The notes below the pieces were generated by a model. It did no database searches, was not told where the DNA came from, and saw only the letters and a list, made by a program, of their open reading frames with translations. Below, in pieces: positions 9,335 to 54,504 of a stretch of 64,000 nt of DNA (within the stretch, counting starts at the first letter, position 1; every line of letters starts with the position of its first letter). Source of the DNA: Escherichia phage JLBYU50; sequence record OK272470.1; one strand, 5' to 3'. The position numbers and the translations under genes are program-made.

Positions 9335-10282
9335 TTAGAAACAGTGCAGGAAGTTTCGACCATACTGCAAACCAATAGGAGCAAATGGGATATCATCATC
9401 GAAATCTTGAACAACAGGTTCTGGTTCTTTCGGTGCTGGCTCTTTCTTCTCTACTTTTTTAGTTTCTTTCTTAACTTCTTGTACTGGGGTAGACATTCCA
9501 CGGATAGCAGCAGCTACTTTATCAGACAAAGCAAGAACTTCACGAGCAGCTTCAATAATCTCTTCTGCCGTTACAGTTTTACCTGTATGATCACGACAAG
9601 CGTTAAGAATTGCGTGTCCAACTGAAGCACCAAGATCATAATCAGTCACATCAACGCCACGATCTTTAGCAATTTCTGCTTTCAGAGTAACAGTTGCAGA
9701 TTGTACCACACCAGCCAAGTCGAAAGCATCACCTTTCACACCAGCACGTAGAAGCTCCAGAGCGCCGTTTACAGCGTGTCCTGTTTCAATCCCTACGGTA
9801 TCACGTTTTTTGTAGTTAGGCTTGCTACCTTCGTTATTAGATGGCTTATTTCCACCTTTTGAAGAAGATTGTGCTTGCTGAACACCTTCTGTTGAAAGAA
9901 TAGTGATTTTACCTTTAGAGGAATTGTAGTATGTTTTGCCATTCCATTCAGAAGGTTTAACATCCATAGTTAGTTCTACACCTTTTTCGATAGTAACCCA
10001 CTTGTCACCATCTTTAACTTGCAGGTTTTCATGTTCTGGATGCAGTTTAACTTCACCTAGGCTAACCCAAACACCTTTATCATCAGCACTAGCACCTTTC
10101 TCTTTAATAAGCAGAGATGCTTTGTGAGTTGATTCAATTTTCTTATCTGGCTGACCTGCAACCTTAATATAAGAGACTTTCATTTCATCAAACTTATCCA
10201 GTTTGACATATTCAACGATACCTTCAGCCCAGAATGCTTCTTTTTTAGTACGACGGTCGATTTCAGAATTAATTACTGGCAT
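9335..10282 (-). CDS. Putative single-stranded DNA-binding protein with SSB-like acidic DFDDDIPF motif
   Basis: 315 aa in the replication module. Contains the exact SSB tail motif DFDDDIPF, but followed by 15 further residues. N-terminal half is K/W-rich and beta-rich (OB-fold-like). Terminator hairpin downstream at 9294-9311. Confidence 0.5.
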   Translation of the reverse strand: MPVINSEIDRRTKKEAFWAEGIVEYVKLDKFDEMKVSYIKVAGQPDKKIESTHKASLLIKEKGASADDKGVWVSLGEVKLHPEHENLQVKDGDKWVTIEKGVELTMDVKPSEWNGKTYYNSSKGKITILSTEGVQQAQSSSKGGNKPSNNEGSKPNYKKRDTVGIETGHAVNGALELLRAGVKGDAFDLAGVVQSATVTLKAEIAKDRGVDVTDYDLGASVGHAILNACRDHTGKTVTAEEIIEAAREVLALSDKVAAAIRGMSTPVQEVKKETKKVEKKEPAPKEPEPVVQDFDDDIPFAPIGLQYGRNFLHCF

Positions 10283-10298
10283 AAATTCTCCTCTATAA

Positions 10299-10697
10299 TT
10301 ACATTACTTTAACACAAAACTCTCGTAAAAGAGTAGCGTCAGTTTCTTCCAACAGGTATTTACCAAGACCAATACCAAATCCTATTTCACCACTTTCAAA
10401 ATGGAGGATTTGTATCTTTTCTCCACCAAGATTAATTACTTTTGCTTTTCCAGGATTATCCAAAACATCTCGTATTGTATCCTGTAGTAGCATAAGCTCA
10501 CGTTTTGTGATAGTGGTTTCAGATATCTCTTTGTTTTCTACTCTCACTGTTAAACGATTGTATCCACCAAAGAGACATAGTATTTGAATAAAAAAGGTAT
10601 TATCTTGAGGTTCAACATCTTTTTTGGTTAGCTCAAGACGATTAGTTTCTCTACTGTAGAACGTCTCGACTAAGATTTTAGAACGATTATCTGTCAT
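10299..10697 (-). CDS. Hypothetical protein
   Basis: 132 aa ORF in the - strand operon. No motif recognised. Confidence 0.4.
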   Translation of the reverse strand: MTDNRSKILVETFYSRETNRLELTKKDVEPQDNTFFIQILCLFGGYNRLTVRVENKEISETTITKRELMLLQDTIRDVLDNPGKAKVINLGGEKIQILHFESGEIGFGIGLGKYLLEETDATLLREFCVKVM

Positions 10698-10740: not shown

Positions 10741-11334
10741 TTAAATCTTAAATTCTTCGTTGTTAAATGAATCTAGTGTACGTACTTCTGGCTCTTTGGG
10801 AATGAAAACGTCTTTTACAAAGCGGAACATAGGGAAACGTTCTGCCATTTTACGGACGTGTGCTTCTTTACCTGTGTATCGGTGATTAATAGTACAAATA
10901 TTAGTTTTCAGTGCAAATTCAAAATCTGGATGATATACATAATTTTGACCATCCCAGTAACACAAGCAAATAGCTACATCAAAGTTCCATACGATTTCAC
11001 TGCGTACACCTTCTTCCATGATCATAAAGTTAAACTTAAGATCTTTATAGTATGCTTCAAATACCCATTTCAAATGTGGTAGTTCGGCATAAGTGTGTTC
11101 TGTTTGCTTAGTAAGTTGTTTAACATTACGTGCACCAACACCCAACATCAAAAATTTCTCTACTAGTACGATTGTATTGTGGTTAGGCATACGCAAGTAA
11201 ATATCAATATCTTGCGCAGGTTTCTCTAATCGCCAATCACGTACAGCGCCGCCAGCTACAATTGCAAACGGATCTACCAGTTGGCACATACGTAACACTT
11301 CTAAAGCTCGTACTTTTTGATCTTCAATATTCAT
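10741..11334 (-). CDS. Pol-beta superfamily nucleotidyltransferase (CCA-adding enzyme / poly(A) polymerase head-domain-like)
   Basis: 197 aa. Motif VAGGAVRDWRLEKPAQDIDIYL matches the GG(A/S)VRD....D.D signature of tRNA nucleotidyltransferase-family head domains. Confidence 0.6.
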   Translation of the reverse strand: MNIEDQKVRALEVLRMCQLVDPFAIVAGGAVRDWRLEKPAQDIDIYLRMPNHNTIVLVEKFLMLGVGARNVKQLTKQTEHTYAELPHLKWVFEAYYKDLKFNFMIMEEGVRSEIVWNFDVAICLCYWDGQNYVYHPDFEFALKTNICTINHRYTGKEAHVRKMAERFPMFRFVKDVFIPKEPEVRTLDSFNNEEFKI

Positions 11335-11471
11335 ATTTTCTCCTATCTCTTATGGTCTTTGCGTTATTCTAGATGTTCAAACATCTAATTATGAAATGGT
11401 TTAAAAGTGTGGAACAACCTTGGCAATAATAGGTTGTCCCACATAAAAACTCCTTTAAAATCAAAGAGATG

Positions 11472-14051
11472 TCAGTGACAACTAGCCCATGAGTTACCAA
11501 CATCGTAACCAGCAGTGAGAGGTACATTAAGATTGTAATACTCACCAGCTTTATTAACAGCAATAGATGCTAATTCTCCAGCACGACTGTAGGCTGTAAA
11601 CCAACCACCTTTCGGAGATTCATGTACGTTAGCCCAAATCTTGCCAGTACGTTTCTCTTCCTCTTCTTTCCAGGTATTAACTTTATCCAAACATTCTTTA
11701 TCAATTTTCTTTTGTTCTTCTGGATCATCAACTTGAGTCCAACCTAAAGATTCTTTAGAGAACCATTTAAAATGCACCAGATCACGAGTTACTTCAAGCT
11801 GTGCTTCATCGTGGTATGCAATCATTTGTTGAACGAATGACTTATTTTTCCAGTCATCAACAAAAAAGTCAACAGCTAATCCTTCTTCTTCGATAAGATC
11901 ATCGTAGATAACCATTGCTCTTTTTGCACAAATAACACCACCACTCTGGAACAGAGAGTTAAGTATTGCGTGTGCAGATCGTGTAGGTACTTTCCTTCCA
12001 TCAATACCAAGAATGTATTTCTTACCTGTTTTAACCCAAAAATCATGCAGACGTTCTTTAAGAAGAGCAAGAGGTTTTGCAGCTTCCCAGAAAGCATCGT
12101 ATACAAGCTGTCCTGTATACATATCACTACCAATGGTTTTTGCTACTTTTGCAGCTTGAGCACCATAAGTAATACCATACTTAACAGATTTAGCAGGGCT
12201 TCGTTCAAACTTACGACCAATAGTATCAGAAATACGTCGAGCCATCATTGTATGAACATCATTAGGTTTTTCCAACAATAGAGCATTACAATATTCGTGT
12301 GGTTCCTGCTCGTACCGCCAACAGTAGTGTGATTCTATTTTTGCCTCAAGAGAATCAAAGTCATAACCAATTTGGAAGTATTTTGGAACTTCTACACCAA
12401 ATAAGTTACGCATTTCATATCCGTACAGAGATGTTACACGTGGGATATTTGCTACTAACCTATGTTTCATACGAGATGTAGCTGCATCACACGTTGCAGC
12501 AGGAGTTGGTATACGACCATCAGCCCTTACTGCTGCCAGATAACCTTTATCGTAATCCTCTTCATCTTCTTCCCAATCAGCACCACCCCCTAAAATAGAG
12601 TTCCTACGGTGTTTATACGTAAGATACTGCACAATCTGCGTAGCATAAGGAAACTTTTCACCTAGTGCTTCCAAGTTAGGACAAATATCTTTCTCTTGCC
12701 CTTTTGTAAAGGAAGGGTTAGTAAGCACTTTAACACCACGACCTTTAGCTTTAGCAATACGATCTCTTAGTTTCCATTCCAAAGTTTCTGGTGTGCACTC
12801 CAGATGATCACATCTGTCCTGGCAGAAGTTAGATGCTAATGTTTGATCAACGTAGTCACGAATAGCTTTCTCCATTTGTGCTTCATCTTTCTTAATCTTA
12901 GTGCCAGATTTAAGAGTGATATCTTTATCTTTATATTCAGATGGACTCCAACCTAAACCAACTAACCAGTTTTTAATATGTGTAGTGTCATCTAAAGTAG
13001 CAGGTACTGTAGGATCACAAATAGGTTCTTCTGCTGGAATAGGGAGTTTAAACTCTTTACCTAATGCAAATAACCACCAACCATCTTCTTTTTGTACAAG
13101 TTCACCAGAATGTTTCTCTGCAAACTTTATCATGTTACTTGAAGGTTCACCATTCTTTTTAAACTGTAGTTTAGGTGGAATGAATGATTTCAAATAACCT
13201 TTAGTAGCAGGTTTGGGAGGTAGTACAGGTTCTGCCTCTAAACGACATGCTTCCATTCGAGCATCCAGATCACGAATATTATCTTCTGCTTGTTTCATAT
13301 TGAAAGCAAAGCCACGGTGCTCTTGACGTGTAATAATATCAGCTACACGTTGTTCTAAGTTAAATGGTTCAGACCACTTATTATAATCACCCCACTCTTC
13401 CATCAAATAACGGAACACTGCGGTGTTAGCTTTGTTATCGTAAATACAGTAATACAGCATATCTGCTGCAAATGTTTTAAATCTTTCAGTTTCAGGAATG
13501 TTTTTTCTAAAATCAATTTTAACATCCCCTCCAGCTTTCTTAGATAACTCTGCCAGACTATGACCACCGAAGCGATCAGGGTTTAGTGTCTTACTTAAGA
13601 TCATAGTATCACAAATTTCAATGTTACTATTACCCCAAGTATTGTACTTAATACTATAGTTGAGTTTAAAAAATAATTTAATTGCCAGTAAGTCGAAGTT
13701 AATGATGTTGTGTCCAACTACTTTGGTAATTTTATAGTTTGAATTACCTTTAAATTTACCTGTTCCATTTACAAAATCAGGAAAATCTTTAAGAGGGAAA
13801 TGGGTATATTCTAAATGCTCATATTCCTCCAGTCGGTATTCATACTTTCCGTCAGTCTCAATATACGGACGACCATCGAAAAGATATTTATCACCATCAT
13901 GGAAAGCAATAATCTCTCCAGTATCATGACTTTCGCACACAATACAGTGCATTGCAAAACTATCTTTTAAACGATATGGACTTGCCAAGTAATCTACACT
14001 TTCGTCATTAAGCAAGTTGTTACTTTCAATGTCGAAAGTAAAAGCTCCCAT
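11472..14051 (-). CDS. DNA polymerase, family A (with 3'-5' exonuclease domain)
   Basis: 859 aa. Exo I motif FDIES at N-terminus. Pol A motif B (KSVKYGITYGAQA) and motif C (YHDEAQLEV). Confidence 0.9.
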   Translation of the reverse strand: MGAFTFDIESNNLLNDESVDYLASPYRLKDSFAMHCIVCESHDTGEIIAFHDGDKYLFDGRPYIETDGKYEYRLEEYEHLEYTHFPLKDFPDFVNGTGKFKGNSNYKITKVVGHNIINFDLLAIKLFFKLNYSIKYNTWGNSNIEICDTMILSKTLNPDRFGGHSLAELSKKAGGDVKIDFRKNIPETERFKTFAADMLYYCIYDNKANTAVFRYLMEEWGDYNKWSEPFNLEQRVADIITRQEHRGFAFNMKQAEDNIRDLDARMEACRLEAEPVLPPKPATKGYLKSFIPPKLQFKKNGEPSSNMIKFAEKHSGELVQKEDGWWLFALGKEFKLPIPAEEPICDPTVPATLDDTTHIKNWLVGLGWSPSEYKDKDITLKSGTKIKKDEAQMEKAIRDYVDQTLASNFCQDRCDHLECTPETLEWKLRDRIAKAKGRGVKVLTNPSFTKGQEKDICPNLEALGEKFPYATQIVQYLTYKHRRNSILGGGADWEEDEEDYDKGYLAAVRADGRIPTPAATCDAATSRMKHRLVANIPRVTSLYGYEMRNLFGVEVPKYFQIGYDFDSLEAKIESHYCWRYEQEPHEYCNALLLEKPNDVHTMMARRISDTIGRKFERSPAKSVKYGITYGAQAAKVAKTIGSDMYTGQLVYDAFWEAAKPLALLKERLHDFWVKTGKKYILGIDGRKVPTRSAHAILNSLFQSGGVICAKRAMVIYDDLIEEEGLAVDFFVDDWKNKSFVQQMIAYHDEAQLEVTRDLVHFKWFSKESLGWTQVDDPEEQKKIDKECLDKVNTWKEEEEKRTGKIWANVHESPKGGWFTAYSRAGELASIAVNKAGEYYNLNVPLTAGYDVGNSWASCH

Positions 14052-18532: not shown

Positions 18533-19205
18533 ATTTTTGAGCCTCCTCATAAGAGATAAAAGTTTTACCATTGCGAAGATCCTCCAGTGATTGTTTATAT
18601 TGTTCCCAGTTTACACCAATCCCCTGTTCTTTCTCTTCTTTTGACAGATTCGCAAAAGGTAAAGGATTATCTCCAAACACATCGTCAGGATGGATAAACG
18701 CCATAATTCGAATAGGACATGGTACGCCGTGAATACCTCGATTCAAACCTGCCAGTGGAACACGCTGAATCCACTCTGCATCCTCATATCCATAACCGTG
18801 AGTGTATGAGCGGAAATAGCCAGCTTTCTCAATAACTGCACGGGAATACATACCAAACTGGCACATGCCTAGCTCCCAAATAACCACTTCTCCTTCAATA
18901 CCTTTTACTTTATCTTTAAAATATTCAGGCATACCAAAGAAATCCCAACCGTTTTCCTTCGCCTGTTTTACAAAGTATGTTTCCCAACCTGGTACAACCG
19001 GATAGCAATCATCATCAAAAATAAACCAGTAGTCATACCCTTCATCATAAAACTTTTTCATCAGTTCATTACGGGCATATGCAACACCTTTTCGTTCACG
19101 ATCATACTGTACAACAAAAGTAGCATTAGGATCAGTTACAAGATAATCTTTAAGAGGACGCTTACCTACAGTAATAACACCAACACCAATTTTTGTATTT
19201 TCCAA
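18519..19205 (-). CDS. Glycosyltransferase family 2-like protein (GT-A fold)
   Basis: 228 aa. N-terminal GVGVITVGKR nucleotide-binding-like strand and DxD-type motif (WFIFDDDCYP). Confidence 0.5.
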   Translation of the reverse strand: MENTKIGVGVITVGKRPLKDYLVTDPNATFVVQYDRERKGVAYARNELMKKFYDEGYDYWFIFDDDCYPVVPGWETYFVKQAKENGWDFFGMPEYFKDKVKGIEGEVVIWELGMCQFGMYSRAVIEKAGYFRSYTHGYGYEDAEWIQRVPLAGLNRGIHGVPCPIRIMAFIHPDDVFGDNPLPFANLSKEEKEQGIGVNWEQYKQSLEDLRNGKTFISYEEAQKYGKS

Positions 19206-19214
19206 AATAACTCC

Positions 19215-19778
19215 TTAAATAATTTTATTCATGTCTTGACAATGTAAAAGGTGTGAAACAGCTTTTCTAGGATCATCATTACCTAAACGGTATGTGTGAA
19301 ATAAATATAACCCACGTAGTAAACCTAGCCTTTTATTGTTAGCGTGCAATGCTTTAGAGAAAATTATATCAAACTGTATTGATCTTTCCTCAAAAGGAAT
19401 TTCATTCCACAGACTCTTACGAAAGAGAAGAAAGAATCCTGCTAAGATAGCATCTGTAGGTACTTCCTCTATTGAGTTTCCCCATTCTAGATGTGCTCTT
19501 TTTGCAATCTCAATGTGGTGTAATATATTCGGATCTTCACTTCTTTCATTATTAAATAATTGATATGTTGATCCCAATCTGTTACAAGATGCACCAAGAA
19601 CATCAAAATCAGGATTTGAACGGACTATTGATTCCAGCCAAGCAGGTTGTTCTGGAAGAAGAAACATTGTATCAATGTCTCTTAGGCAAATCCAACTATC
19701 TTCTGGTAAGACACTTATTGTGTCATTGATACCTTTTCCAATATCTCCAGAAAGATAGGGAGTTATGTGAAATATCAT
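19215..19778 (-). CDS. Hypothetical protein, possible fourth glycosyltransferase-like gene
   Basis: 187 aa in the same operon as the GT genes. Weak DxD-like motif (CLRDIDTMF). Assignment tentative. Confidence 0.35.
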   Translation of the reverse strand: MIFHITPYLSGDIGKGINDTISVLPEDSWICLRDIDTMFLLPEQPAWLESIVRSNPDFDVLGASCNRLGSTYQLFNNERSEDPNILHHIEIAKRAHLEWGNSIEEVPTDAILAGFFLLFRKSLWNEIPFEERSIQFDIIFSKALHANNKRLGLLRGLYLFHTYRLGNDDPRKAVSHLLHCQDMNKII

Positions 19779-32608: not shown

Positions 32609-33559
32609 TTAGTCAAGGTTTTTGGTAATACGTGTACAACCGTCAGAAGTCAAACCGTCAACTTGAGTTTCCCAAGTACCATGAATATTTCGGAACAATG
32701 TTGTTACACCTTTTGGTTCATTAATAATGATTGCCATAACAAGTTTAGGATCGATAACAGACATAATCTTTTCCTCAATACCCTCTGTAATAACATTATT
32801 GCGCACAATATTAATTGCATCTTCTTGTACAGTAAGAGCACTTACGTTCTTAAGAGTATATACCTGCTGCGTAGTGTAAATGATACGAACATAGCTTACA
32901 GAACGAGTAGGCACAGGTTTACGCGGTCGGCGAAAACGTGGTTTTGGTGAAGATTCAGTCTTACTTTCATTTTTTGAATAATACTCCTCAAACAGTTTAG
33001 TAAATGTTTTTACATCAACTACAAATCGATCTTTCCTATATGGAGAATTCTTATGTGCACCATTAATACCACTGTTTTCATCGAAGAAAGTAATGTTTTC
33101 TTCAGTTGAATACATTAGATAATGATCTGCATTTTTCCAATGTGGTTGTGGACAATGAGGATTACAAACGGAAAGCAAGTAATTAATATTTTCTTCCGTG
33201 GCCTCAGTATCCAGGAAACACGTATTATGCACAGTCAGTTGTACTTTTTCAGCCATATCTTTTTCTTTATCCTCTTTAGCAAGATATTCAGTACGAATAA
33301 TCTCCAGAAAACCTTCAGGTGTTACTTCCATAAATTTATATTCAGGATGAAGCTCCATATATTCAAATCCACAACCATCTAATTGCTGTAGAAAGTTAGG
33401 GTAGAAGAACAAGTCATTAACACTATGAATCAGATCATTGATTTCTGCTTCAGATGTGTAACCAAAACTTTTGTGAATTGCTTCGTTAAGAATATGCAGG
33501 ATACCCATCTCTTCTGCTGCTTTTTTAACTTCCAGTTTATTAGCGTAAAATGCAATCAT
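32609..33559 (-). CDS. Hypothetical protein
   Basis: 316 aa ORF. No motif recognised. Confidence 0.45.
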   Translation of the reverse strand: MIAFYANKLEVKKAAEEMGILHILNEAIHKSFGYTSEAEINDLIHSVNDLFFYPNFLQQLDGCGFEYMELHPEYKFMEVTPEGFLEIIRTEYLAKEDKEKDMAEKVQLTVHNTCFLDTEATEENINYLLSVCNPHCPQPHWKNADHYLMYSTEENITFFDENSGINGAHKNSPYRKDRFVVDVKTFTKLFEEYYSKNESKTESSPKPRFRRPRKPVPTRSVSYVRIIYTTQQVYTLKNVSALTVQEDAINIVRNNVITEGIEEKIMSVIDPKLVMAIIINEPKGVTTLFRNIHGTWETQVDGLTSDGCTRITKNLD

Positions 33560-34023: not shown

Positions 34024-34596
34024 TTATTCGCTAATGCTTTGAATCTTATTTACAACACGGTTTATTGCCAGTGAAGCCCTAGGCTCCGCAATACCTGTTG
34101 CATAGATATAAGGATGACCTTTTGGAGACTCCCTCATACCGAATGAACCTAATTCTAAACCATATTCATCCTCTACGTCAACCCCCATATTAGTGGGTAC
34201 TAAATATGTTTTAACTCCATAATAAGTAGAGAAGAAACAGCGCATAGCGTTAGCATACTCTTCAATTGTAGCATCAGGGTAGAACTCAATCAACTCCAAT
34301 TTCAAGAAAATATTAAAATGAGTATCATCTAAATTTTCTTCTGTGCGGTAACATGGTGTTAGTGCCATATACGGATTACCTACTGCAAATTCAAAACCAT
34401 CCTTCTCCATTTGCAGGAAAGATTGTTCTGCACTAGCTACATAGTATTTACCGTTAGGATGCCCTAATGGGCGATCCTCTTTATTTTCTGGTAGTGTATA
34501 CGCCAGTATATCAGCATCCACGAGATATGGAACTTCTAACATTTGTGCAAATCGACCATAGTAATCAATAGCTTGAGCTATTACTGCAACATTCAT
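34024..34596 (-). CDS. Hypothetical protein
   Basis: 190 aa. Operonic with the YqeY-like gene. No motif recognised. Confidence 0.45.
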   Translation of the reverse strand: MNVAVIAQAIDYYGRFAQMLEVPYLVDADILAYTLPENKEDRPLGHPNGKYYVASAEQSFLQMEKDGFEFAVGNPYMALTPCYRTEENLDDTHFNIFLKLELIEFYPDATIEEYANAMRCFFSTYYGVKTYLVPTNMGVDVEDEYGLELGSFGMRESPKGHPYIYATGIAEPRASLAINRVVNKIQSISE

Positions 34597-34844
34597 GATC
34601 GACCTCCATTGCGGAATGCACGTTTAGTAATGTTTGACATAGTGATCAAATCTTGAAGCGTCATACCAGGAAAATGCTGTTCAAGAACACCTTCAACAGC
34701 GCCTACAATATCTGACAACTCAATAAGTTGCATCAGCTTGCAATCTTGATCAATAGCATCTTGAAGTTCATAAAGCTCTTCTTGAATCTTAGCAACAGAA
34801 CCATACTCCTCTTTGCTAATCTCCTTCAAATGATACCCTGCCAC
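34593..34844 (-). CDS. Putative MazG-like all-alpha NTP pyrophosphohydrolase
   Basis: 83 aa. EE/acidic helix pattern (IQEELYELQDAIDQD...LIELSDIVGAV) resembles the MazG/HisE-type metal-binding helices. Tentative. Confidence 0.4.
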   Translation of the reverse strand: MAGYHLKEISKEEYGSVAKIQEELYELQDAIDQDCKLMQLIELSDIVGAVEGVLEQHFPGMTLQDLITMSNITKRAFRNGGRS

Positions 34845-34854
34845 TTTAACCCCC

Positions 34855-36591
34855 TTAGTTTACCAGTTTATTTATGTCTGGTAAAAGATTTATTTCACCT
34901 AAGAAATCACCTTCACCTTCCTCTAGCCAACTCTCATATGCTTGTGCATGATTATAGTTACCATCAAAAGAATCTGCAACAAATTTTTCTACAGTTTTTC
35001 GAGATGTGCCAGCGCCAAATACACCAAGTTTAATACCATTGATCGGTAAAGTGGTGCTTGTTGGTACTTTCTCTGTTGCAACACGGTTGATATCTATAAT
35101 CTCCTGTACGGTTGTGTTCCATTGTAAGCATTTAACACAACGGGTATGCGCTACATACAGTAGGTTTCGCTCTGCCTCTTCCAGTCCTACCCATTCACCA
35201 GTCTTTTTATCATAGTTGGAAGGAAAATCATTAGCAACAATAACCTGATCCCACTCCAAACCTTTAGACTTGTGTGCTGTAGTCAGTGTGACTTTTGCTG
35301 TAGGAGAATTTCTATGCGTTCTAAGTGTATGTGCTATGGTGTTCGCCTTACCAGAAACTACGATGTTTAACAAGCGTTTAGCATCTGGATCAGCCTCTGC
35401 ACACTCAACAAATTCATCCCAGTCTGCGTAAGGTAATACAGTTTCATGTTTTACTTTCTCAATATCTCCTCTACGAAGAGCATTAACACTATCTACCATA
35501 GAGATAAAATCCCTGGTATCTACGTTAATAATAATTTCTTCCCCATCTGCAATACGATCCATTGCCTCCATAAGCAAGGTTAAATTCTTGCGAAAGATGA
35601 TAGTGTAAGGTTTTGTATAGTCTACAACATCTGATTTGTAGCTACCTACTACAGTATCAAAGCCTTTACCAACCAAAGGATGACGCAAAGGTTCTTTATC
35701 GCTTAAAATCATATTGGCAATGTTTGCCACTTTGGGGCCAAAACGGAAGCAAGCAGTTAATGGAAGCTCTGCCCCATATGTAGATGTTTCCTTCATCATA
35801 TTTTGGCTTCCACGGAACTGGTAGATGCTCTGATATTCGTCACCCACCACTACTACTTGTTTTGCAGATTTAGCATTTCGCAGAATAGACAAGAATGCAG
35901 GGTTAACATCCTGGAATTCATCACCAAAAATAATATCATAACCAAGATCAGCACCAGACAATTCAAACAATTTTACATAGGTGTCATGCGTCATCAAAGT
36001 ATCTGTGTTAGGATCGATGCGCTCTCGCCACAATTGTTTTGCATACTTAACTACTTCTGTAATTAGTTTGTGTTCGTTAATACCTTTTCTTTTAATATCT
36101 GCAAGATGTACACCAGGAAAATGTTTACGGCTAATAAAAGGATCATCCGAAAATTCAAACTTACCTACGGTTTGCTTGATCATTAAACCAATCATAGCAC
36201 GAGTTAAAAGTGTTTTCCCTCGTTTATCAATAAGATTATTAATCTTAAATTTCTTTGCTATCTCGCTACCTGTACCTGCAACGTTAACATACTGTCCTTC
36301 TGGTCGTGACAGTTTTGCACGTAAACGATGATCCAGGAATTGATAGCAAATAGAATGCAATGTACGGCATTCTACATTTAGTGGCATCTTACGTCGTGCT
36401 TCTTCTGCCATGCTTTTATTGAAAGCTAAGTAAAGAATGCGATCTTCTGTACTGTTAGCCAGCAAATAAAGTGTTGACGTTTTGCCTGATCCAGATTTAG
36501 CTTGGATAGTTAAAAAACGATGGTCTGGAAAAGCCTCCTTAATAGCTGTTTGCTCTTCTGTTGGAGTAAAACTCAACTCTTTCTTAGCCAT
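34855..36591 (-). CDS. UvrD/PcrA-like superfamily-1 DNA helicase
   Basis: Start at MAKKELSF after RBS GAGG. Walker A AKSGSGKT, motif II GDEFQD, motif III VVVGDEYQSIYQFRG. Confidence 0.85.
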   Translation of the reverse strand: MAKKELSFTPTEEQTAIKEAFPDHRFLTIQAKSGSGKTSTLYLLANSTEDRILYLAFNKSMAEEARRKMPLNVECRTLHSICYQFLDHRLRAKLSRPEGQYVNVAGTGSEIAKKFKINNLIDKRGKTLLTRAMIGLMIKQTVGKFEFSDDPFISRKHFPGVHLADIKRKGINEHKLITEVVKYAKQLWRERIDPNTDTLMTHDTYVKLFELSGADLGYDIIFGDEFQDVNPAFLSILRNAKSAKQVVVVGDEYQSIYQFRGSQNMMKETSTYGAELPLTACFRFGPKVANIANMILSDKEPLRHPLVGKGFDTVVGSYKSDVVDYTKPYTIIFRKNLTLLMEAMDRIADGEEIIINVDTRDFISMVDSVNALRRGDIEKVKHETVLPYADWDEFVECAEADPDAKRLLNIVVSGKANTIAHTLRTHRNSPTAKVTLTTAHKSKGLEWDQVIVANDFPSNYDKKTGEWVGLEEAERNLLYVAHTRCVKCLQWNTTVQEIIDINRVATEKVPTSTTLPINGIKLGVFGAGTSRKTVEKFVADSFDGNYNHAQAYESWLEEGEGDFLGEINLLPDINKLVN

Positions 36592-36592
36592 T

Positions 36593-37069
36593 TCAACCTC
36601 TCTTAATTTGTTTAACAAGCATAGGAACAAAATCTCGTTTTAAAATTTGTTCAATAATATGATCAGGTAGCTGTTGGAAATTATAATTAAAAGCTACTGT
36701 CTCACCTTTAGGTGTTTCTACCCGCACATATAACATGTTACGAAGTTTATCCACTTGTGCTGTGTATTCTAAACCATGTAATTGATGTAATGCAAACATC
36801 AAATCATCAGTTTCAGTTTGGAATCTATCCCTTCCCTGCATCAAGGACAAGGAAAAAGGTAGATTTTCCCTAAGAGCCACCTTCTTAGGCACTAGTGAAG
36901 GGAAATACTCCCCAATAACTTCCTGTGTAAGCTGAATACACTCTTTTTCAAGCTGGTTTTGTTCCTTGAGTTCACAAACACTCTTTTGTAAAGTATTAAC
37001 CTCTTTTTGCAAAGCTGCTAGTTGAGCACTTAACTTTCTTTTTTGATTACGACCAAAACGTTTAGACAT
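36593..37069 (-). CDS. Hypothetical protein
   Basis: 158 aa. Basic N-terminus and coiled-coil. Confidence 0.45.
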   Translation of the reverse strand: MSKRFGRNQKRKLSAQLAALQKEVNTLQKSVCELKEQNQLEKECIQLTQEVIGEYFPSLVPKKVALRENLPFSLSLMQGRDRFQTETDDLMFALHQLHGLEYTAQVDKLRNMLYVRVETPKGETVAFNYNFQQLPDHIIEQILKRDFVPMLVKQIKRG

Positions 37070-48176: not shown

Positions 48177-48449
48177 ATGGCATCATATAGCGCATCAATG
48201 ATCGTAACGGGTATCACTGGTAAACCTATGCGCGGTGGCGGATCTTTCGCTAACATCAACATTGACGGGCGTTTATCCCTGGACGCAGCGATCACAGTGG
48301 CACGGGAAACATTTAAAAAAGAATGTAATTTCAATAAACAAGATTATCTCGGTTTCGCTATTGAAAAAACCGCGCGCTTTGTGGATTATAAAAGCCCGAA
48401 AATGATCGACACTACACTAAAAGCGCAAGATGTAGCGTTTTTGCTTTAA
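48177..48449 (+). CDS. Hypothetical early protein
   Basis: 90 aa, preceded by cassette 1 and RBS agagag. Confidence 0.45.
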   Translation: MASYSASMIVTGITGKPMRGGGSFANINIDGRLSLDAAITVARETFKKECNFNKQDYLGFAIEKTARFVDYKSPKMIDTTLKAQDVAFLL

Positions 48450-48452
48450 GGT

Positions 48453-48513
48453 TTGACACTGAAAAATAATTGGGTAATATATACGACATAAGGCGGGGAA
48501 ATGGTTTCCCGCC
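48453..48513 (+). promoter_or_regulatory. Early promoter cassette 2 with palindrome GGCGGGGAAATGGTTTCCCGCC
   Basis: TTGACA 48453-48458, -10 TAATAT 48475-48480, palindrome 48492-48513, then RBS aaagggtaa and ATG 48536. Confidence 0.6.
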
Positions 48514-48535
48514 AAATCAAAGAAAGGGTAATGCA

Positions 48536-48898
48536 ATGAGCAAGCAAATCAATACTATCATGTTTAATCTGGTATCTTTCCGCGATGACGTGAAAAACCT
48601 TTCGCGTGATGCAGTGGATGCACGGATCGAAAGCTATCGCACACAGATCGCAACGTTACCGCTGAAACGTGATCAACATGCCGCTAATATGATGCTGGAT
48701 GCTATGATTAAAAAGATGATTCAGTGTGATATTACCCTGGCTTATGAATATGCTGGCGATCTCTTTGTAACATATAGCAAGCCCGTTCCAGGTATGAGCA
48801 CCACGGAAGAATTGCATGCCTTAAATCTGCGACAAGATGCATGGGATAACATGCGCCGTGTTATGGTATGGGTAGAAAGCGGTAAAATTTACGAATAA
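48536..48898 (+). CDS. Hypothetical early protein
   Basis: Start at MSKQINTIMF, chosen downstream of the promoter and palindrome. Confidence 0.45.
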   Translation: MSKQINTIMFNLVSFRDDVKNLSRDAVDARIESYRTQIATLPLKRDQHAANMMLDAMIKKMIQCDITLAYEYAGDLFVTYSKPVPGMSTTEELHALNLRQDAWDNMRRVMVWVESGKIYE

Positions 48899-48904
48899 AA
48901 ACGG

Positions 48905-48957
48905 TTGACATTGCACTAAAACCTGATAAGCTATCTTAAAGCGGGAACTATTCCCGC
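48905..48957 (+). promoter_or_regulatory. Early promoter cassette 3 with palindrome GCGGGAACTATTCCCGC
   Basis: TTGACA 48905-48910, -10 AAGCTA 48928-48933, palindrome 48941-48957. Confidence 0.55.
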
Positions 48958-48976
48958 TTACATAGGATAAAACTTT

Positions 48977-49123
48977 ATGAAACAATATGTAATGAGTATT
49001 CATACCAAAAACGGCGCTACTGTTACGACTCCGGCACGGTTTGCACTTGTAAACCGTTGCAAGAGACTAAAACGAGAGCTAAAAAATAACCGTGCAACGG
49101 GCTTTAAACGCTGGGGAGGATAA
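48977..49123 (+). CDS. Hypothetical small basic protein (48 aa)
   Basis: ATG 19 nt after the cassette 3 palindrome. Arg/Lys-rich. Not in the ORF track (under 60 aa). Confidence 0.35.
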   Translation: MKQYVMSIHTKNGATVTTPARFALVNRCKRLKRELKNNRATGFKRWGG

Positions 49124-49125
49124 TC

Positions 49126-49386
49126 TTGTTTTTTCTAAAAGTTTTTGATAATGTGATCGCTTTTGAACATGCTACAACGTTCGACCTGGCGAGATACGCT
49201 ATCAGGTTTAAAGATAATGTTTATCCCCGTGCTGGCGGCGGTTACACTATTTTTAATCATCGCAACGCGCAACTGACTGATGTAACTAATCCAGATCCTG
49301 GAGTGTATCGCATAGGCTGGCTACCGTCAAAAGACGCTGCAAGCATGTTTAAGGTGTGTAAACTACTAACAGAAGAGGCGAACTAG
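49126..49386 (+). CDS. Hypothetical early protein (TTG start)
   Basis: TTG start 5 nt after RBS GGAGGA. 86 aa. Confidence 0.35.
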   Translation: MFFLKVFDNVIAFEHATTFDLARYAIRFKDNVYPRAGGGYTIFNHRNAQLTDVTNPDPGVYRIGWLPSKDAASMFKVCKLLTEEAN

Positions 49387-49387
49387 C

Positions 49388-49942
49388 ATGGGGCGTGAAT
49401 ATGTGATCCAGTCCTGGGTAAAGCATGATGCTAATGATCCGCGCATAATACCAGATGACATGATCGATCACATGGTAGGGTATAGCGGGGAGCAGATAGG
49501 AAATCGAGCGGCAAAGAGCAACGGCAACACCAGGACGCGATCCGTTCGTCCTGGATGGCTGGCGAATGGTAACGCTGACATTGCAAGCGCCGCAGATCCA
49601 AGCGATGACGCTAAAAATAATCCCTTGTACAGCATTGATCCGGCTTTTAAGGTGTTGGAAGAGTATCCCGCTAAATTAGCCGCACTAGATAAGGCATACG
49701 AAGAAAAGCGCATGGCCTGGACTGTATACAACACCGCTAAAATGGTGCTAGATGCAAAACTAATTAAAGCCCAGGAGAAGATCAATAAACTTGTTACCAT
49801 AGCGCAAGAGGAAGACCAGGGCGACCAGGAGGAAGAGGAAGAAATCATGCCTACCCTGGAAGAGGAAGAGATCCAGCCATACATGCCGACGGAAGAGGAA
49901 AAAAGACAAGCCTTAAAAAATTATGAAAATTGCATTGTGTAA
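49388..49942 (+). CDS. Hypothetical protein with highly acidic C-terminal region
   Basis: 184 aa. C-terminal EEDQGDQEEEEEIMPTLEEEEIQPYMPTEEEK. Confidence 0.45.
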   Translation: MGREYVIQSWVKHDANDPRIIPDDMIDHMVGYSGEQIGNRAAKSNGNTRTRSVRPGWLANGNADIASAADPSDDAKNNPLYSIDPAFKVLEEYPAKLAALDKAYEEKRMAWTVYNTAKMVLDAKLIKAQEKINKLVTIAQEEDQGDQEEEEEIMPTLEEEEIQPYMPTEEEKRQALKNYENCIV

Positions 49943-49944
49943 GG

Positions 49945-50050
49945 GTTGACATATGCAAACAAGCCCCGTAATATGTACCACATAGAGCGGGGCAACTTCT
50001 CAAAGGTGAAATAAAAAATCAGTTGACACCTGAAATCAGTAAGCTATAAT
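49945..50050 (+). promoter_or_regulatory. Tandem early promoters 4a/4b
   Basis: TTGACA 49945-49950 with TAATAT 49969-49974; TTGACA 50023-50028 with TATAAT 50045-50050. GCCCCG/CGGGGC inverted repeat flanks the first -10. Confidence 0.5.
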
Positions 50051-50087
50051 GCTTATATAGATTGAAACATTACTAAGGAATAAAAGC

Positions 50088-50267
50088 ATGGCTATTATTG
50101 CGAAGACTGAGATCGTAGGTTTAAATTCTATCCTCCTGGCATATGAGGAAGCTATAGAAATGTATGTGGTTTCCTATGGTGATTATATCCGTGAATATAA
50201 TTCTATTGATCTAGCTTTTGAATGCTATATTCGCCAGGTAAATAAAGCATACGATGATTATCGTTAA
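50088..50267 (+). CDS. Hypothetical small early protein (59 aa)
   Basis: ATG after RBS aaggaataaaagc. Not in the ORF track (under 60 aa). Confidence 0.4.
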   Translation: MAIIAKTEIVGLNSILLAYEEAIEMYVVSYGDYIREYNSIDLAFECYIRQVNKAYDDYR

Positions 50268-50286
50268 AAGTTTTAGTCTTGTGCTA

Positions 50287-50315
50287 TTGACAACGAACGA
50301 TAGTACAAGCATAAT
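50287..50315 (+). promoter_or_regulatory. Early promoter 5 (TTGACA-17-CATAAT)
   Basis: TTGACA 50287-50292, -10 50310-50315; no palindrome. Confidence 0.45.
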
Positions 50316-50362
50316 AACTTTTATCGGGAACACTCCTAACTAATCAAAAGAGATTAAAGATT

Positions 50363-50728
50363 ATGGCTAAAAATATTAATGTTTCTGCTTATGCTACCCT
50401 GGCTAACGTTGCTAAAATTGAACTGTCCAGCATTGAAGCGGTACATATTAGCGCCCGTCGCTGGTTTCAAAAGTCTTATGGTAATACTTATTTCTCTTTG
50501 ATGGTTGACGTTGAGATCGGCGGTAAACTGATTGAAGTCGTTAACGTTCCGTTTCAATATGGTTATGGTGATCATTTCGATACCGTTGCCCTGGAAGAGT
50601 TTAGCAAGGTTATCAACCTGGAAGGTAAAGAGTTTTCAAATTATGCTTATCTTTCCCGTTTTTGCCGTGACAATGGGATCGCTGTATACAGTCATGCAAG
50701 CGATGTTAAACGTAAAAAAGATTTATAA
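50363..50728 (+). CDS. Hypothetical early protein
   Basis: 121 aa after RBS aaagagattaaag. Confidence 0.45.
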   Translation: MAKNINVSAYATLANVAKIELSSIEAVHISARRWFQKSYGNTYFSLMVDVEIGGKLIEVVNVPFQYGYGDHFDTVALEEFSKVINLEGKEFSNYAYLSRFCRDNGIAVYSHASDVKRKKDL

Positions 50729-50734
50729 AAAGCA

Positions 50735-50796
50735 TTGACAGCACGAATAAAAAGCGTAAAATGTTTCATATCAGGACGGGGGAATGGTTCCCCCGC
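50735..50796 (+). promoter_or_regulatory. Early promoter cassette 6 with palindrome CGGGGGAATGGTTCCCCCG
   Basis: TTGACA 50735-50740, -10 TAAAAT 50757-50762, palindrome about 50777-50796. Confidence 0.55.
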
Positions 50797-50816
50797 CTAT
50801 AACTAGGTATAATAAA

Positions 50817-51047
50817 ATGGCTAATATGTATATGACCGAAGTTAAAACCGTAAAAGATACTACTACCAATAAAACTACTTACTTACAGCGGATCTGCGGT
50901 GTATGGCAACGTATTAGTAAAGCAAAGTATTATAAATTAACATCATATGCTAATCGTTCGGATTCATTCAGTACTGAAATAAAAGGTAATAAAGTACACC
51001 AATACGGCACTTATTATTATTATAGCCTAGACGCGATTGCAATCTAA
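50817..51047 (+). CDS. Hypothetical early protein
   Basis: Start at MANMYMTE downstream of the palindrome. Tyr-rich C-terminus. Confidence 0.4.
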   Translation: MANMYMTEVKTVKDTTTNKTTYLQRICGVWQRISKAKYYKLTSYANRSDSFSTEIKGNKVHQYGTYYYYSLDAIAI

Positions 51048-51480: not shown

Positions 51481-51708
51481 ATGGCTATCGTTATTGTTCG
51501 CGTATCCGGCACGGTTGGGATCTCCCAGGTAGTAGCAGTTATCACCGAGAAGAAAGGGGATGATCTTCACTCCTCCTTGAATAGCTGGGCGGTCGCTAAC
51601 TTTGGGCAATGGTCGAGCGTTGAGTACATCGAATCCTACCAGGTGCCAACGATTAGCCTAACCGATCTAAATGTTGATCGCTTGTTGTGCCTGGATCAAT
51701 TAAACTAA
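51481..51708 (+). CDS. Hypothetical early protein
   Basis: 75 aa after RBS aaagaaaggt. Confidence 0.45.
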   Translation: MAIVIVRVSGTVGISQVVAVITEKKGDDLHSSLNSWAVANFGQWSSVEYIESYQVPTISLTDLNVDRLLCLDQLN

Positions 51709-51726
51709 AAATAATATTGACAAGAT

Positions 51727-51783
51727 AACTAAAATCAGTAAAATGTAATGCATAGGGCGGCACTATTGCCGCCCCCTAGTGAG
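51727..51783 (+). promoter_or_regulatory. Early promoter cassette 9 with palindrome GGCGGCACTATTGCCGCC
   Basis: TTGACA 51727-51732, TAAAAT 51749-51754, palindrome 51766-51783. Confidence 0.6.
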
Positions 51784-51796
51784 AGAGATTATCAAA

Positions 51797-52012
51797 ATGG
51801 CTAATATCCGCACACTGTTAAAAAATGCAAGTCAAGTTTTATTTTCAGATGACGAGTATTTCAACAAAGACATTACAGGCGTGAAAAATTTAAAAGACGT
51901 GAAGGATGTTATCGGTATCCGTGGATCTTTACGTAAAGGTGACATATACGGTAACAAGGTGCAATATAAATTGTCAAAAGATTATGATTTTACTTTGACA
52001 ATTATTTCATAA
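51797..52012 (+). CDS. Hypothetical early protein
   Basis: Start at MANIRTLLKN after RBS gagagag. Confidence 0.45.
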   Translation: MANIRTLLKNASQVLFSDDEYFNKDITGVKNLKDVKDVIGIRGSLRKGDIYGNKVQYKLSKDYDFTLTIIS

Positions 52013-52018
52013 AACCGC

Positions 52019-52079
52019 TTGCAATACTGCAAAAATAAAGTAAACTGTATTCATTAAGGCGGTGGAATAGCCCACCGCC
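52019..52079 (+). promoter_or_regulatory. Early promoter cassette 10 with palindrome GGCGGTGGAATAGCCCACCGCC
   Basis: TTGCAA 52019-52024, TAAACT 52041-52046, palindrome 52058-52079. Confidence 0.55.
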
Positions 52080-52102
52080 TAACAAAGAGAAGAGGAAACA
52101 TC

Positions 52103-52273
52103 ATGATCACTTTCGCCACCCGTGAAGCCGCTCGCAACGTTGCACGTAAAGTTAACGCCGCCAACCTGGGCGCTACGCTTAAAGCCCCGGTGAAAGATGA
52201 ATCAGGAAAATGGATCTTTCCTGGTCTGCGTCACGCTGATAAGCTGGGAACATTAACGTTAAAAAACAAATAA
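52103..52273 (+). CDS. Hypothetical small early protein (56 aa)
   Basis: ATG after RBS agaggaaaca. Not in the ORF track (under 60 aa). Confidence 0.4.
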   Translation: MITFATREAARNVARKVNAANLGATLKAPVKDESGKWIFPGLRHADKLGTLTLKNK

Positions 52274-52280
52274 TATCCGT

Positions 52281-52339
52281 TTGACAGTAGCATCATTTAT
52301 AAGTAAAGTAACAACAACGGCGGGAAATGGTTTCCCGCC
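52281..52339 (+). promoter_or_regulatory. Early promoter cassette 11 with palindrome GGCGGGAAATGGTTTCCCGCC
   Basis: TTGACA 52281-52286, TAAAGT 52304-52309, palindrome 52319-52339 (identical to cassettes 2 and 8). Confidence 0.6.
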
Positions 52340-52359
52340 ATCAATAAAGAGATAAGATT

Positions 52360-52719
52360 ATGAAATCAGTAAAAGCAATTAAAACTTACATTGTGTCGGC
52401 TATTTCTTTTGATGGTACTACAACCGAAAAAGAAAAGATCACCGAACTGATGCGCCGTTTTAACTCTGAATACTGGTATCCCGATAATCAAAAACGTTAC
52501 AATTATAACGTGATCAAGGCAATAGCCTCATGGTTACAAGGTTTACCGTCAGAAGTCAATATTGCTTTTGATTATAACGAGATCGATCACTTGTTAATTG
52601 AATGGAAGTACATAAAAGAAACAAGCAAAGAAACAACCGTTACCCGTGAGCGGGAAAATTATTGGTTATATATTGCAAGCATGATCGTAACCCTGGCAAA
52701 ACAGCATAACGTGGCGTAA
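52360..52719 (+). CDS. Hypothetical early protein
   Basis: 119 aa after RBS aaagagataag. Confidence 0.45.
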   Translation: MKSVKAIKTYIVSAISFDGTTTEKEKITELMRRFNSEYWYPDNQKRYNYNVIKAIASWLQGLPSEVNIAFDYNEIDHLLIEWKYIKETSKETTVTRERENYWLYIASMIVTLAKQHNVA

Positions 52720-52734
52720 TTAAGAGGAAAAAAC

Positions 52735-52872
52735 ATGAACGCATCACAGCAGATCGAAAAATTCAACCGCAACAAAGCGCGTAAAAATTGGAATGAAGAG
52801 ATCACCAAGAAAGGCGATAAGCGGAACAAAACAAAAAGAGATCGCAGCACAAAAAGACACTGGAACGAATAA
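52735..52872 (+). CDS. Hypothetical small highly basic protein (45 aa)
   Basis: ATG after RBS aagaggaaaaaac. Lys/Arg-rich. Followed by terminator 52877-52900. Confidence 0.3.
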   Translation: MNASQQIEKFNRNKARKNWNEEITKKGDKRNKTKRDRSTKRHWNE

Positions 52873-52876
52873 CAAA

Positions 52877-52900
52877 AAGGGCGCAATAAGCGCCCTTTTA
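52877..52900 (+). terminator. Rho-independent terminator-like hairpin
   Basis: AAGGGCGC-AATAA-GCGCCCTT followed by TTTA. Confidence 0.5.
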
Positions 52901-52990
52901 GCTTATATAGAGGCTTGTTACCCATAGGCAATGGTAACGCCAGGGCAAGCCTATAAATCAACGTTAGACAGCTTTACAGGAGCTTTAAAA

Positions 52991-53173
52991 ATGAAATTAG
53001 ACGAAATAAGCAAGGCACTAGCCCAGGGGCAAAGGTTATGCGCCCGATATCGTGATCAATATGGCTTCATAACTAGCGGCGTGATCCTGGGGATTGAAGG
53101 TAATAAAATTTTTATTGACACGTTGAAAAACGTTGTATATAGTGACAATATAATCTCAATAAAACATATATGA
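52991..53173 (+). CDS. Hypothetical small protein
   Basis: Start at MKLDEISKAL after RBS acaggag. Confidence 0.35.
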   Translation: MKLDEISKALAQGQRLCARYRDQYGFITSGVILGIEGNKIFIDTLKNVVYSDNIISIKHI

Positions 53174-53181
53174 GGCAAGAA

Positions 53182-53583
53182 ATGAAAAAATTATTGATCG
53201 CTGGTTTAATCTCTTTTGGCATGGTTGGAACATCTAGCGCGGCGATATCCTCCACAGTAGCAGAATTAAGCGCCGTTGATGCAATGGAAAACGTCATGAT
53301 CATTAATAACGCGATCCCCGATGAAATCATGGAGGATTCACACATGATCGCTTATGGTGCTGTTACACAATTAACGGCAAAAATAGATAAATCTATTGTT
53401 AATGGCTTAAATGAAGATGTACCATGTGAAATTATTACCAGTGTGCTAACGACTCAAAATTTTACGCCGTGGTTAAAAAGTATTCAAAAGGTACACAGCA
53501 CCGCCGCAGATCGTAGCAATGAAAAACTAGTGTCAGCACTTGCAACGTATACCCTAGCAAAATGCACCGAAATAAAAGATTGA
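53182..53583 (+). CDS. Secreted hypothetical protein
   Basis: Start at MKKLLIAGLISFGMVGTSSAA (signal peptide). Confidence 0.45.
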   Translation: MKKLLIAGLISFGMVGTSSAAISSTVAELSAVDAMENVMIINNAIPDEIMEDSHMIAYGAVTQLTAKIDKSIVNGLNEDVPCEIITSVLTTQNFTPWLKSIQKVHSTAADRSNEKLVSALATYTLAKCTEIKD

Positions 53584-53607
53584 CAATATAGAAAGCACGT
53601 TATAAGA
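53580..53607 (+). promoter_or_regulatory. Promoter 12 (TTGACA-16-TATAAG)
   Basis: TTGACA 53580-53585 overlapping the upstream stop, -10 at 53602-53607. Confidence 0.4.
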
Positions 53608-53630
53608 TACACACAACAAAGGAGAACTAC

Positions 53631-53933
53631 ATGAACGGCATAGCTAAAACGTTTTTTCTTTTTTCTGGTGTAAATGATCCATCAATAAAAGTCGATAGTG
53701 TAAAAGAAAACAATACTATCACCGCTAAATTGTTTCAAGATGAAACAAATAACGTGCTAATCATTAATCTTAAAGAAATAACGAAAGGTTATTATACTAT
53801 TGCTTACCATGCGATCTATCATGCTGGTACTAGCGAGGAAGTGCAAACAAGCAACAACGAAAGCGCGGCGCTACCTGGTGATCTGGTGTTGGGCGTTATC
53901 AGTTTAATTGTCAATGATTTTTTTAAGGAGTAA
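53631..53933 (+). CDS. Hypothetical protein
   Basis: 100 aa after RBS aaaggagaac. Confidence 0.4.
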   Translation: MNGIAKTFFLFSGVNDPSIKVDSVKENNTITAKLFQDETNNVLIINLKEITKGYYTIAYHAIYHAGTSEEVQTSNNESAALPGDLVLGVISLIVNDFFKE

Positions 53934-54116
53934 AACCATGCCCTATTTACATTTATTTTTCGGTATCTTATTGACAGGATCTTTTTTCTTCTGTATGCTT
54001 GTTTCTATTGTAAACCACGTTTTAAGACATTAAGGAAACAGCATGAAAATTATTCCCGTACAGTATAGCGTAATAAATCCAGCATATGAGGAAGGAAGGA
54101 AAACAAGCATGGCTTT

Positions 54117-54461: not shown

Positions 54462-54477
54462 ATAACATTTCATACCA

Positions 54478-54504
54478 GGGCGCACAAAGCGCCCTTTCTT
54501 TTTA
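54478..54504 (+). terminator. Rho-independent terminator
   Basis: AGGGCGC-ACAAA-GCGCCCT followed by TTCTTTTT. Confidence 0.6.

Follow-up and report, generated by a model that had tools for sequence, protein, structure and literature searches.

Class-II nucleotidyltransferases comprise the tRNA nucleotidyltransferases (tRNA-NTases) and bacterial poly(A) polymerase I (PAP), and the enzymes of this kind that have been solved, such as the CCA enzyme of B. stearothermophilus (1MIV), the A-adding enzyme of A. aeolicus (4WBY/1VFG) and the poly(A) polymerase of E. coli (3AQL), are proteins of 340-520 aa. Their body and tail domains bind the acceptor and the T-arm of the tRNA, and Asp and Arg residues of the neck read the base (PMC3925840). 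When a CCA enzyme was randomised, no substitute for either the D or the R of the EDxxR motif was recovered (PMC11784652). Full-length CCA enzymes are carried by jumbo phages as RNA-repair genes (PMC7824862), and the immune nuclease Cas12a3 cuts tRNA 3′ tails (PMC12851939). Proteins annotated as tRNA nucleotidyltransferases, encoded between the helicase and the DNA polymerase, are also enriched in the Autographiviridae of Pectobacterium (37/46 vs 60/>500; PMC7693777). Two groups of small proteins come closer in size to the one described here: a bacterial stand-alone protein of S. pneumoniae, NP_344798.1 (PDB 2LA3, 191 aa), described as a 'CCA-adding enzyme head domain' protein, and a family of small phage proteins labelled 'nucleotidyltransferase' or 'putative tRNA nucleotidyltransferase', which includes phi92 gp158, gp28 of Pectobacterium phage PP47 and ICP1 ORF223.

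The window analysed here, a 64-kb stretch of DNA from Escherichia phage JLBYU50 (OK272470.1), encodes a protein of this last kind. A first-pass annotation had taken it for an enzyme resembling CCA-adding enzymes and had proposed that, together with a YqeY-domain protein encoded elsewhere in the window, it may serve tRNA maintenance.

The window and its genes

Both regions are 98-99% identical to the corresponding DNA of Justusliebigvirus (phi92-like) E. coli myoviruses, e.g. VivaForever, alia and phi92. The records of these relatives already name the 197-aa protein 'nucleotidyltransferase' (gp158 in phi92), and they label the 144-aa protein 'tRNA amidotransferase' or 'YqeY-like' and the 190-aa protein 'histidyl-' or 'seryl-tRNA synthetase'. 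The reading frames picked out earlier, a 197-aa ORF with a GGAVRD…DIDIY signature and an ATG start and the 144-aa and 190-aa ORFs, are all present on the minus strand (Table 1). The window had also been said to hold no tRNA genes, and ARAGORN indeed found neither a tRNA nor a tmRNA gene in the 64 kb.

Table 1. Positions of the features discussed in the text, numbered from the first nucleotide of the window.
Feature	Position	Strand	Remarks
315-aa protein, phrog_4477	9335..10282	-	Weak SSB C-terminal match; labelled SSB in phages Eryne and BME3
132-aa protein, phrog_16560, directly downstream of the NTase	10299..10697	-	
Stand-alone class-II-type (CCA/PAP-like) nucleotidyltransferase (NTase), 197 aa, head and short neck	10741..11334	-	
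Intergenic, DNA polymerase to NTase	11335..11471	-	Hairpin, T-rich run, weak promoter-like site, NTase ribosome-binding site
Family-A DNA polymerase, 859 aa, directly upstream of the NTase	11472..14051	-	'DNA polymerase I' in 98-99% identical phages
316-aa protein, PHROG label 'ribonucleotide reductase' (phrog_15930)	32609-33559	-	
YqeY-family (GatB C-terminal-domain-like) protein, 144 aa	33577..34011	-	Pfam YqeY; phrog_1460
Minimal SerRS-like class-II synthetase-type core, 190 aa	34024..34596	-	phrog_4806, E 3e-70
Putative MazG/PRA-PH-like all-alpha NTP-pyrophosphohydrolase-type protein, 83 aa	34593..34844	-	phrog_6408
UvrD-type helicase	34855..36630	-	ORF; annotation in related phages

The NTase, whose sequence contains the stretch AIVAGGAVRDWRLEKPAQDIDIYL, is preceded by a good Shine-Dalgarno sequence (ATAGGAGAAAATATG). 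The gap of 137 nt that separates its gene from the DNA polymerase gene holds a terminator-like hairpin (GTGGGACAACC…GGTTGTTCCAC) followed by a T-rich run (11400-11440, minus strand), and a weak promoter-like site with 9/12 consensus matches (11395-11366, minus strand). A better sigma-70-like promoter match (11/12, with an extended -10 TG; 10737-10708, minus strand) lies immediately past the NTase stop codon and ahead of the 132-aa gene. Given the hairpin upstream and the promoter match after the stop, the NTase may form a small transcription unit of its own.

A class-II catalytic head that ends after a short neck

The NTase matches phrog_1614 over its full length (residues 7-193, E 3.1e-34), and its homologues carry the precomputed Pfam label PF26128. 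At E<=1e-3 the family comprises 1233 cluster representatives, which are stand-alone proteins, nearly all of 175-240 aa, and 196 phage records contain a member. Many viral homologues of 165-225 aa with the same compact architecture are found in BFVD, from T7-like phages (of Pectobacterium, Dickeya, Providencia and Pseudomonas), Caulobacter Cd1, ICP1 (ORF223) and even pithoviruses. Ten longer members of the family contain no extra Pfam domain and no fused sensor or effector domain. Our literature searches returned no functional study of this small phage family (phrog_1614/PF26128).

Among 126 homologues with 20-53% identity to the window protein, no substitution occurs at G28, G29, D42 or D44, and Q6, A10, A27, A30, R32, D33, W34, Y82 and K162 are conserved in at least 90%. 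Since it is conserved across homologues as divergent as these, the GGAVRD…DxD signature is no chance match and is under selection. At E93, which may be the third acidic residue, no more than about 71% of the homologues have E or D. Motif A of the class-II CCA enzymes (GGxVRD, then DxD) is represented by GGAVRD at residues 28-33 and by D42-I-D44; in a PDB profile search, residues 10-50 of the family profile align to the CCA enzyme 6ibp (E 7e-4), and the alignment that hhalign produces between the family and E. coli Cca is restricted to the motif A stretch.

An AF2 model of the NTase, built from the 126-sequence alignment, predicts the Pol-beta-type head-domain fold of class II. The solved structures nearest to the model are all tRNA-NTases or PAP, and matches to structures of the DNA-polymerase-X type score well below these; the model covers about a quarter to a third of its structural targets, in their N-terminal part only (TMt 0.24-0.32). 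The ordered part ends near residue 175 and the last ~22 residues are predicted to be disordered.

The features by which the canonical enzymes hold and read their substrate are not found in this chain, which at 197 aa stops after a short neck and contains neither body nor tail domain. No conserved RR-D corresponding to motif B (RRD), which senses the ribose, occurs anywhere in the family alignment; at its position the window protein reads VWNFDVAICL and the family consensus is xxF[P/D/S]xSIC. Likewise, the alignment holds no conserved D…R pair at i and i+3 that would correspond to motif D (EDxxR), the protein template by which CTP and ATP are chosen, the stretch in question being K-E-A-H-V-R-K (156-162) in the window NTase and [D/E]157 (52%)-x-[H/Y]159-x-x-K162 (94%) across the family. 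Both positional equivalences follow the succession of secondary-structure elements and the profile searches, rather than a 3D superposition. A profile of NTase residues 100-176 showed no similarity to residues 1-210 of E. coli Cca, scoring below shuffled controls (200 shuffles), and since neither this profile nor hhalign found anything beyond motif A, the equivalence of motifs B-E cannot be established by sequence. The library models agree with this picture, the Pfam PolyA_pol head reaching 19.2 bits (cut-off 23) and the NCBIfam CCA equivalog NF009814 15 bits (cut-off 290).

Because the body and tail domains, RRD and EDxxR are all missing, the NTase, as judged from its sequence, is not a canonical CCA-adding enzyme. 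The first-pass annotation was thus right about the fold family, but the canonical CCA-adding function that the resemblance might imply fails on three defining features. A lack of body and tail domains was half of what that annotation had itself named as counting against a tRNA nucleotidyltransferase, and here RRD and EDxxR are absent as well. In the HMM and structure comparison that it had proposed, PolyA_pol stayed below its cut-off, the nearest structures were tRNA-NTases or PAP, and YqeY scored above its own cut-off.

Gene neighbourhood and tRNA genes

We fetched 80 viral loci with members of the NTase family and reduced them to 48 non-redundant ones; the gene calls in metagenomic loci come from a simple greedy ORF picker. 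In 33 of the 48, as counted with Pfam and with local iterative HMMs, the strand of the NTase gene also encodes, within 6 kb, a family-A DNA polymerase (PolA) and/or a DnaB-type primase-helicase, and PolA directly adjoins the NTase homologue in 21; a replication gene is absent from the vicinity in about a third of the loci. The small neighbours of the NTase include homing HNH endonucleases, an exonuclease, dCMP deaminase and methylases, and the fetched loci contained no recurrent small neighbour and no recurrent RNA-repair gene (RNA ligase, Pnkp). The genes found downstream in the window, for the 132-aa and the SSB-like proteins, were considered as family-wide partners and set aside, as they occur only in rV5/phi92-like relatives, where the 132-aa gene stands beside the NTase in 10 of the 80 loci.

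Genes for tRNAs lie within 6 kb of the NTase in just 5 of 60 loci, and a conserved association with tRNA genes was accordingly rejected. The tRNA cluster of phi92 (NC_023693) is located outside the window, at 51618-54544 of the phi92 genome, and consists of 15 genes (Met x2, Leu x2, Ser x2, Lys, Tyr, Asn, Thr, Gly, Gln, Pro, Phe and Ile), every one of which encodes its 3′-CCA. The addition of CCA is therefore unneeded for their maturation, which removes maturation of phage tRNAs from the roles that the NTase could have, and for these tRNAs only a repair role would make sense. The host, E. coli, has a Cca of its own.

Two further observations concern the phi92 cluster and its surroundings. For the Lys(TTT) gene ARAGORN found no normal anticodon loop and gave the output 'tRNA-??? 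(tt)'. Just ahead of the cluster, at 48179-50877, a PRPP-synthetase-like and a nicotinamide phosphoribosyltransferase-like gene stand side by side, a pair that presumably resembles the phage NAD+-reconstitution gene pairs.

Possible functions of the nucleotidyltransferase

The most fitting description of the NTase is that of a class-II nucleotidyltransferase variant with the head only, one that travels with phage replication genes and is already catalogued and routinely annotated. As for its function, we favour, with a probability of roughly 55%, an active two-metal nucleotidyltransferase that adds nucleotides to a nucleic-acid 3′-OH, with a rebuilt pocket and no dock for tRNA. On this view the protein would be the catalytic core of a Pol-beta nucleotidyltransferase of class II (the CCA-adding/poly(A)-polymerase type), active and standing alone. 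At its two-metal site, formed by GG…DxD, NTPs would most likely donate nucleoside monophosphates that are joined, without a template, to the 3′-OH of a nucleic-acid end. RNA would be the default substrate by homology, and the pocket would be lined by the family-specific residues W34, Y82, K162, Y153 and H/Y159. Because the family travels with T7-type replication genes (PolA, primase-helicase), the NTase is probably expressed with the replication or middle genes, and its function could be an accessory one, or one in host conflict or in nucleic-acid metabolism. Catalytic activity, a nucleic-acid 3′ end as substrate and the timing of expression are all things that we infer, the first two from homology alone.

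A repair enzyme for tRNA is a possible, if unlikely, alternative to this broader reading. The NTase would in that case be a minimal enzyme acting on tRNA 3′ ends (CCA or A76) and restoring tails damaged in infection or by tail-targeting immunity. Such a role would agree with the CCA-like motif A (GGAVRD…DxD), with the exclusive occurrence of tRNA-NTases and PAP among the nearest solved structures, and with the investment of the phi92 lineage in tRNAs, 15 genes in all. In addition, a part in host conflict is suggested by the enrichment among phages of Pectobacterium (PMC7693777), immunity by nucleases that act on tRNA 3′ tails has been described (Cas12a3; PMC12851939), and jumbo phages carry CCA enzymes of full length (PMC7824862). 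However, the enzyme would have to recognise tRNA without body and tail (PMC3925840), for example by oligomerisation or through an unknown partner, and it also misses RRD as well as the D and R of EDxxR, for which randomisation in CCA enzymes yielded no substitute (PMC11784652). Repair is further disfavoured by the scarcity of tRNA genes near the NTase, by the lack of RNA ligase or Pnkp among its recurrent neighbours, by the small genomes of many T7-like carriers, and, in phi92 and its host, by tRNA genes that need no de novo CCA addition and by the Cca that E. coli already has. The discovery of Cas12a3 makes the idea of repair topical, but nothing found here supports repair specifically. The tRNA-maintenance role first proposed for the NTase thus keeps the CCA/PAP-type catalytic head in its favour, but the neighbourhood of the family is that of DNA replication and not of tRNA or RNA repair; the fallback offered at the same time, a minimal nucleotidyltransferase with another substrate, agrees with the evidence no less well.

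That neighbourhood could also be read literally, as a sign that the NTase acts in DNA replication or metabolism by extending or modifying DNA 3′ ends or RNA primers, or by using dNTPs. Its constant position next to PolA and the primase-helicase would then be accounted for, yet we regard this reading as distinctly improbable. To our knowledge, every characterised class-II nucleotidyltransferase adds nucleotides to RNA and none acts on DNA, and the DNA-polymerase-X-type matches of the model fall well below those to CCA enzymes and PAP. Moreover, the order of phage genes often reflects the timing of their expression rather than a pathway, so that the placement of the NTase in the replication cluster may reflect shared expression timing only, and roughly one locus in three lacks a replication gene in the vicinity. 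Finally, an anti-defence or host-takeover enzyme that attaches nucleotides to small molecules or proteins, or that makes or destroys a signalling nucleotide, is very improbable, as the structural similarity is clearly strongest to RNA 3′-end polymerases, no PADLOC defence model matches and no sensor or effector domain is fused to the longer members of the family.

The YqeY gene

The YqeY-domain protein is real, scoring 29.8 bits against the Pfam YqeY model (PF09424; gathering threshold 27, E 7.5e-7) with residues 44-143 matching profile positions 40-143 of 143, and matching phrog_1460 with an E of 1.4e-36. It consists of the YqeY domain only and has no GatB catalytic (cradle) domain, and the database label 'tRNA amidotransferase' over-reaches. 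Our literature searches returned no functional study of a phage YqeY.

Homologues with 63-99% identity are found on phage contigs of 140-157 kb. In relatives with a 65-68% identical YqeY the gene order is UvrD - ~100 aa - YqeY - DUF7244 - NrdD - NrdG, with no synthetase-like gene, and a UvrD-type helicase is the conserved upstream neighbour of YqeY in this phage group. On the other side, the 316-aa protein, which is always placed between YqeY and NrdD/NrdG, contains no Pfam RNR domain; its counterpart in the relatives carries DUF7244.

The first-pass annotation had described the YqeY gene as coupled to that of the 190-aa protein, and the two are indeed adjacent here. However, among 80 viral loci that encode a protein of the 190-aa type, YqeY adjoins its gene only in two phi92-like ones, and since the distant (65-68% identical) relatives have no 190-aa gene in this place, the coupling is specific to the phi92 lineage. 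A split synthetase in which YqeY would supply the tRNA-binding domain in trans to the 190-aa protein, an attractive idea, was rejected on the same grounds. The NTase and YqeY genes are separated by 22 kb, and no sign of a link between them was found.

A synthetase-like core and its MazG-like partner

The profile of the 190-aa family matches residues 177-322 of the seryl-tRNA synthetase (SerRS) 2dq3 with an E of 9.5e-5 and, more weakly, AspRS and PylRS. Invariant in the family are S55 and E57 of a SAEQS stretch that aligns to TAEVP of SerRS, T80, C82 and R84 of motif 2 (TPCYRxE), F97, K99 and E101 of the motif H93..F97xK99xE101, and P172 and R173 of motif 3 (GTGxAEPR), so that class-II motifs 2 and 3 are both present with their ATP-binding arginines (R84 and R173). 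In the alignment the motif-2 loop is ~8 residues shorter than in SerRS. The 190-aa protein has neither a tRNA-binding arm (the SerRS coiled coil) nor an anticodon-binding domain, and no Pfam or NCBIfam synthetase model exceeds its threshold. These motifs identify the protein as the minimal core of a class-II synthetase of the SerRS-like kind, and the names 'histidyl-' and 'seryl-tRNA synthetase' given to it over-reach.

Another phi92 protein of 190 aa, gp051 (18696-19268), is labelled 'histidyl tRNA synthetase' too; BLAST found no similarity between it and the 190-aa protein of the window, and it was excluded as a relative. Its label is probably an annotation carried over from a different PHROG.

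An 83-aa ORF that the first reading of the window had missed ends within the start of the 190-aa gene, with an overlap of 4 nt. In 76 of 80 viral loci a gene of this type occurs close to the synthetase-like one, mostly as its immediate neighbour, usually upstream with overlapping stop and start and sometimes downstream, and in loci L139, L151 and L159-L162 the two are fused into proteins of ~262-280 aa. The pair occurs in 272 phage records that span rV5/phi92-like, T4-like Acinetobacter, phiCbK-like, Microcystis and jumbo phages, and the module was also found in a giant-virus MAG. The real conserved partner of the 190-aa gene is therefore the 83-aa gene, and the two form a module separate from YqeY.

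In the 83-aa family, E22, E23, E26, E42 and D45 are invariant (EExxE…ExxD). PRA-PH matches were obtained for 33 of 43 members, all of them weak (best E 2.9e-4), the window protein itself reaching 15.2 bits against the PRA-PH HMM (cut-off 21.3), and the family also weakly matches the MazG-like protein 1vmg. From these similarities we infer that the pair may combine an amino-acid-adenylating enzyme with an NTP pyrophosphohydrolase-type partner. Literature searches for a MazG-like/synthetase-like pair found nothing.

Implications

The NTase family is large (>1000 cluster representatives) and is present in the model phages phi92 and ICP1 and in BASEL phages. Should the small NTases turn out to be repair enzymes for tRNA tails, no smaller enzymes of the CCA type would be known, and phages would have in them a counter-defence to tRNA-tail cleavage, a class of immunity described only in 2026. 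If they act in replication instead, an unrecognised activity would be added to the T7-type replisome gene set.

A further-reaching view, to which we give little credence, is that the NTases are phage-specific template-independent polymerases that have dispensed with the docking and templating parts and, separately, that the pair at 34024-34844 is a new amino-acid-activating system. Were it true, the head-only NTases would rebuild tRNA 3′ tails or extend other RNA or primer ends and could be a portable phage countermeasure to immunity that targets tRNA tails, and the MazG-like and SerRS-like proteins would be a widely spread two-component activating system, sometimes fused. The coupling of the 83-aa and 190-aa genes across very different phages may be a more useful lead than the NTase.

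Comparison with known systems

In comparison with the class-II tRNA-NTases and bacterial poly(A) polymerase I, the phage NTase, at 197 residues, has only about half the length, and its sequence similarity to them is confined to motif A. The bacterial head-domain protein NP_344798.1 is also a stand-alone protein and of nearly the same length, but its identity to the phage NTase is only 9%, and 2LA3 was not recovered by the sequence-profile searches. By contrast, nothing sets the window NTase apart from the small phage family of phrog_1614, of which it is a member: it is 99% identical to the protein of phage alia, has the same size and occupies the same place by the replication genes. The Pectobacterium-phage proteins were placed in this family by fold matches and not by alignment.

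For the second module, we take the atypical truncated SerRS homologues known as amino acid:[carrier-protein] ligases, along with other adenylating enzymes that resemble class-II synthetases, to be probably the closest to the 190-aa protein. They would share with it the SerRS-type core (SAE loop, TPCYRxE, HxxFxKxE and GxGxxxPR) and the lack of a tRNA-binding arm. However, the phage family is much smaller (~185 aa) and no carrier-protein gene was seen with it. It has instead a MazG/PRA-PH-like protein as its partner, to which it is fused in some loci.
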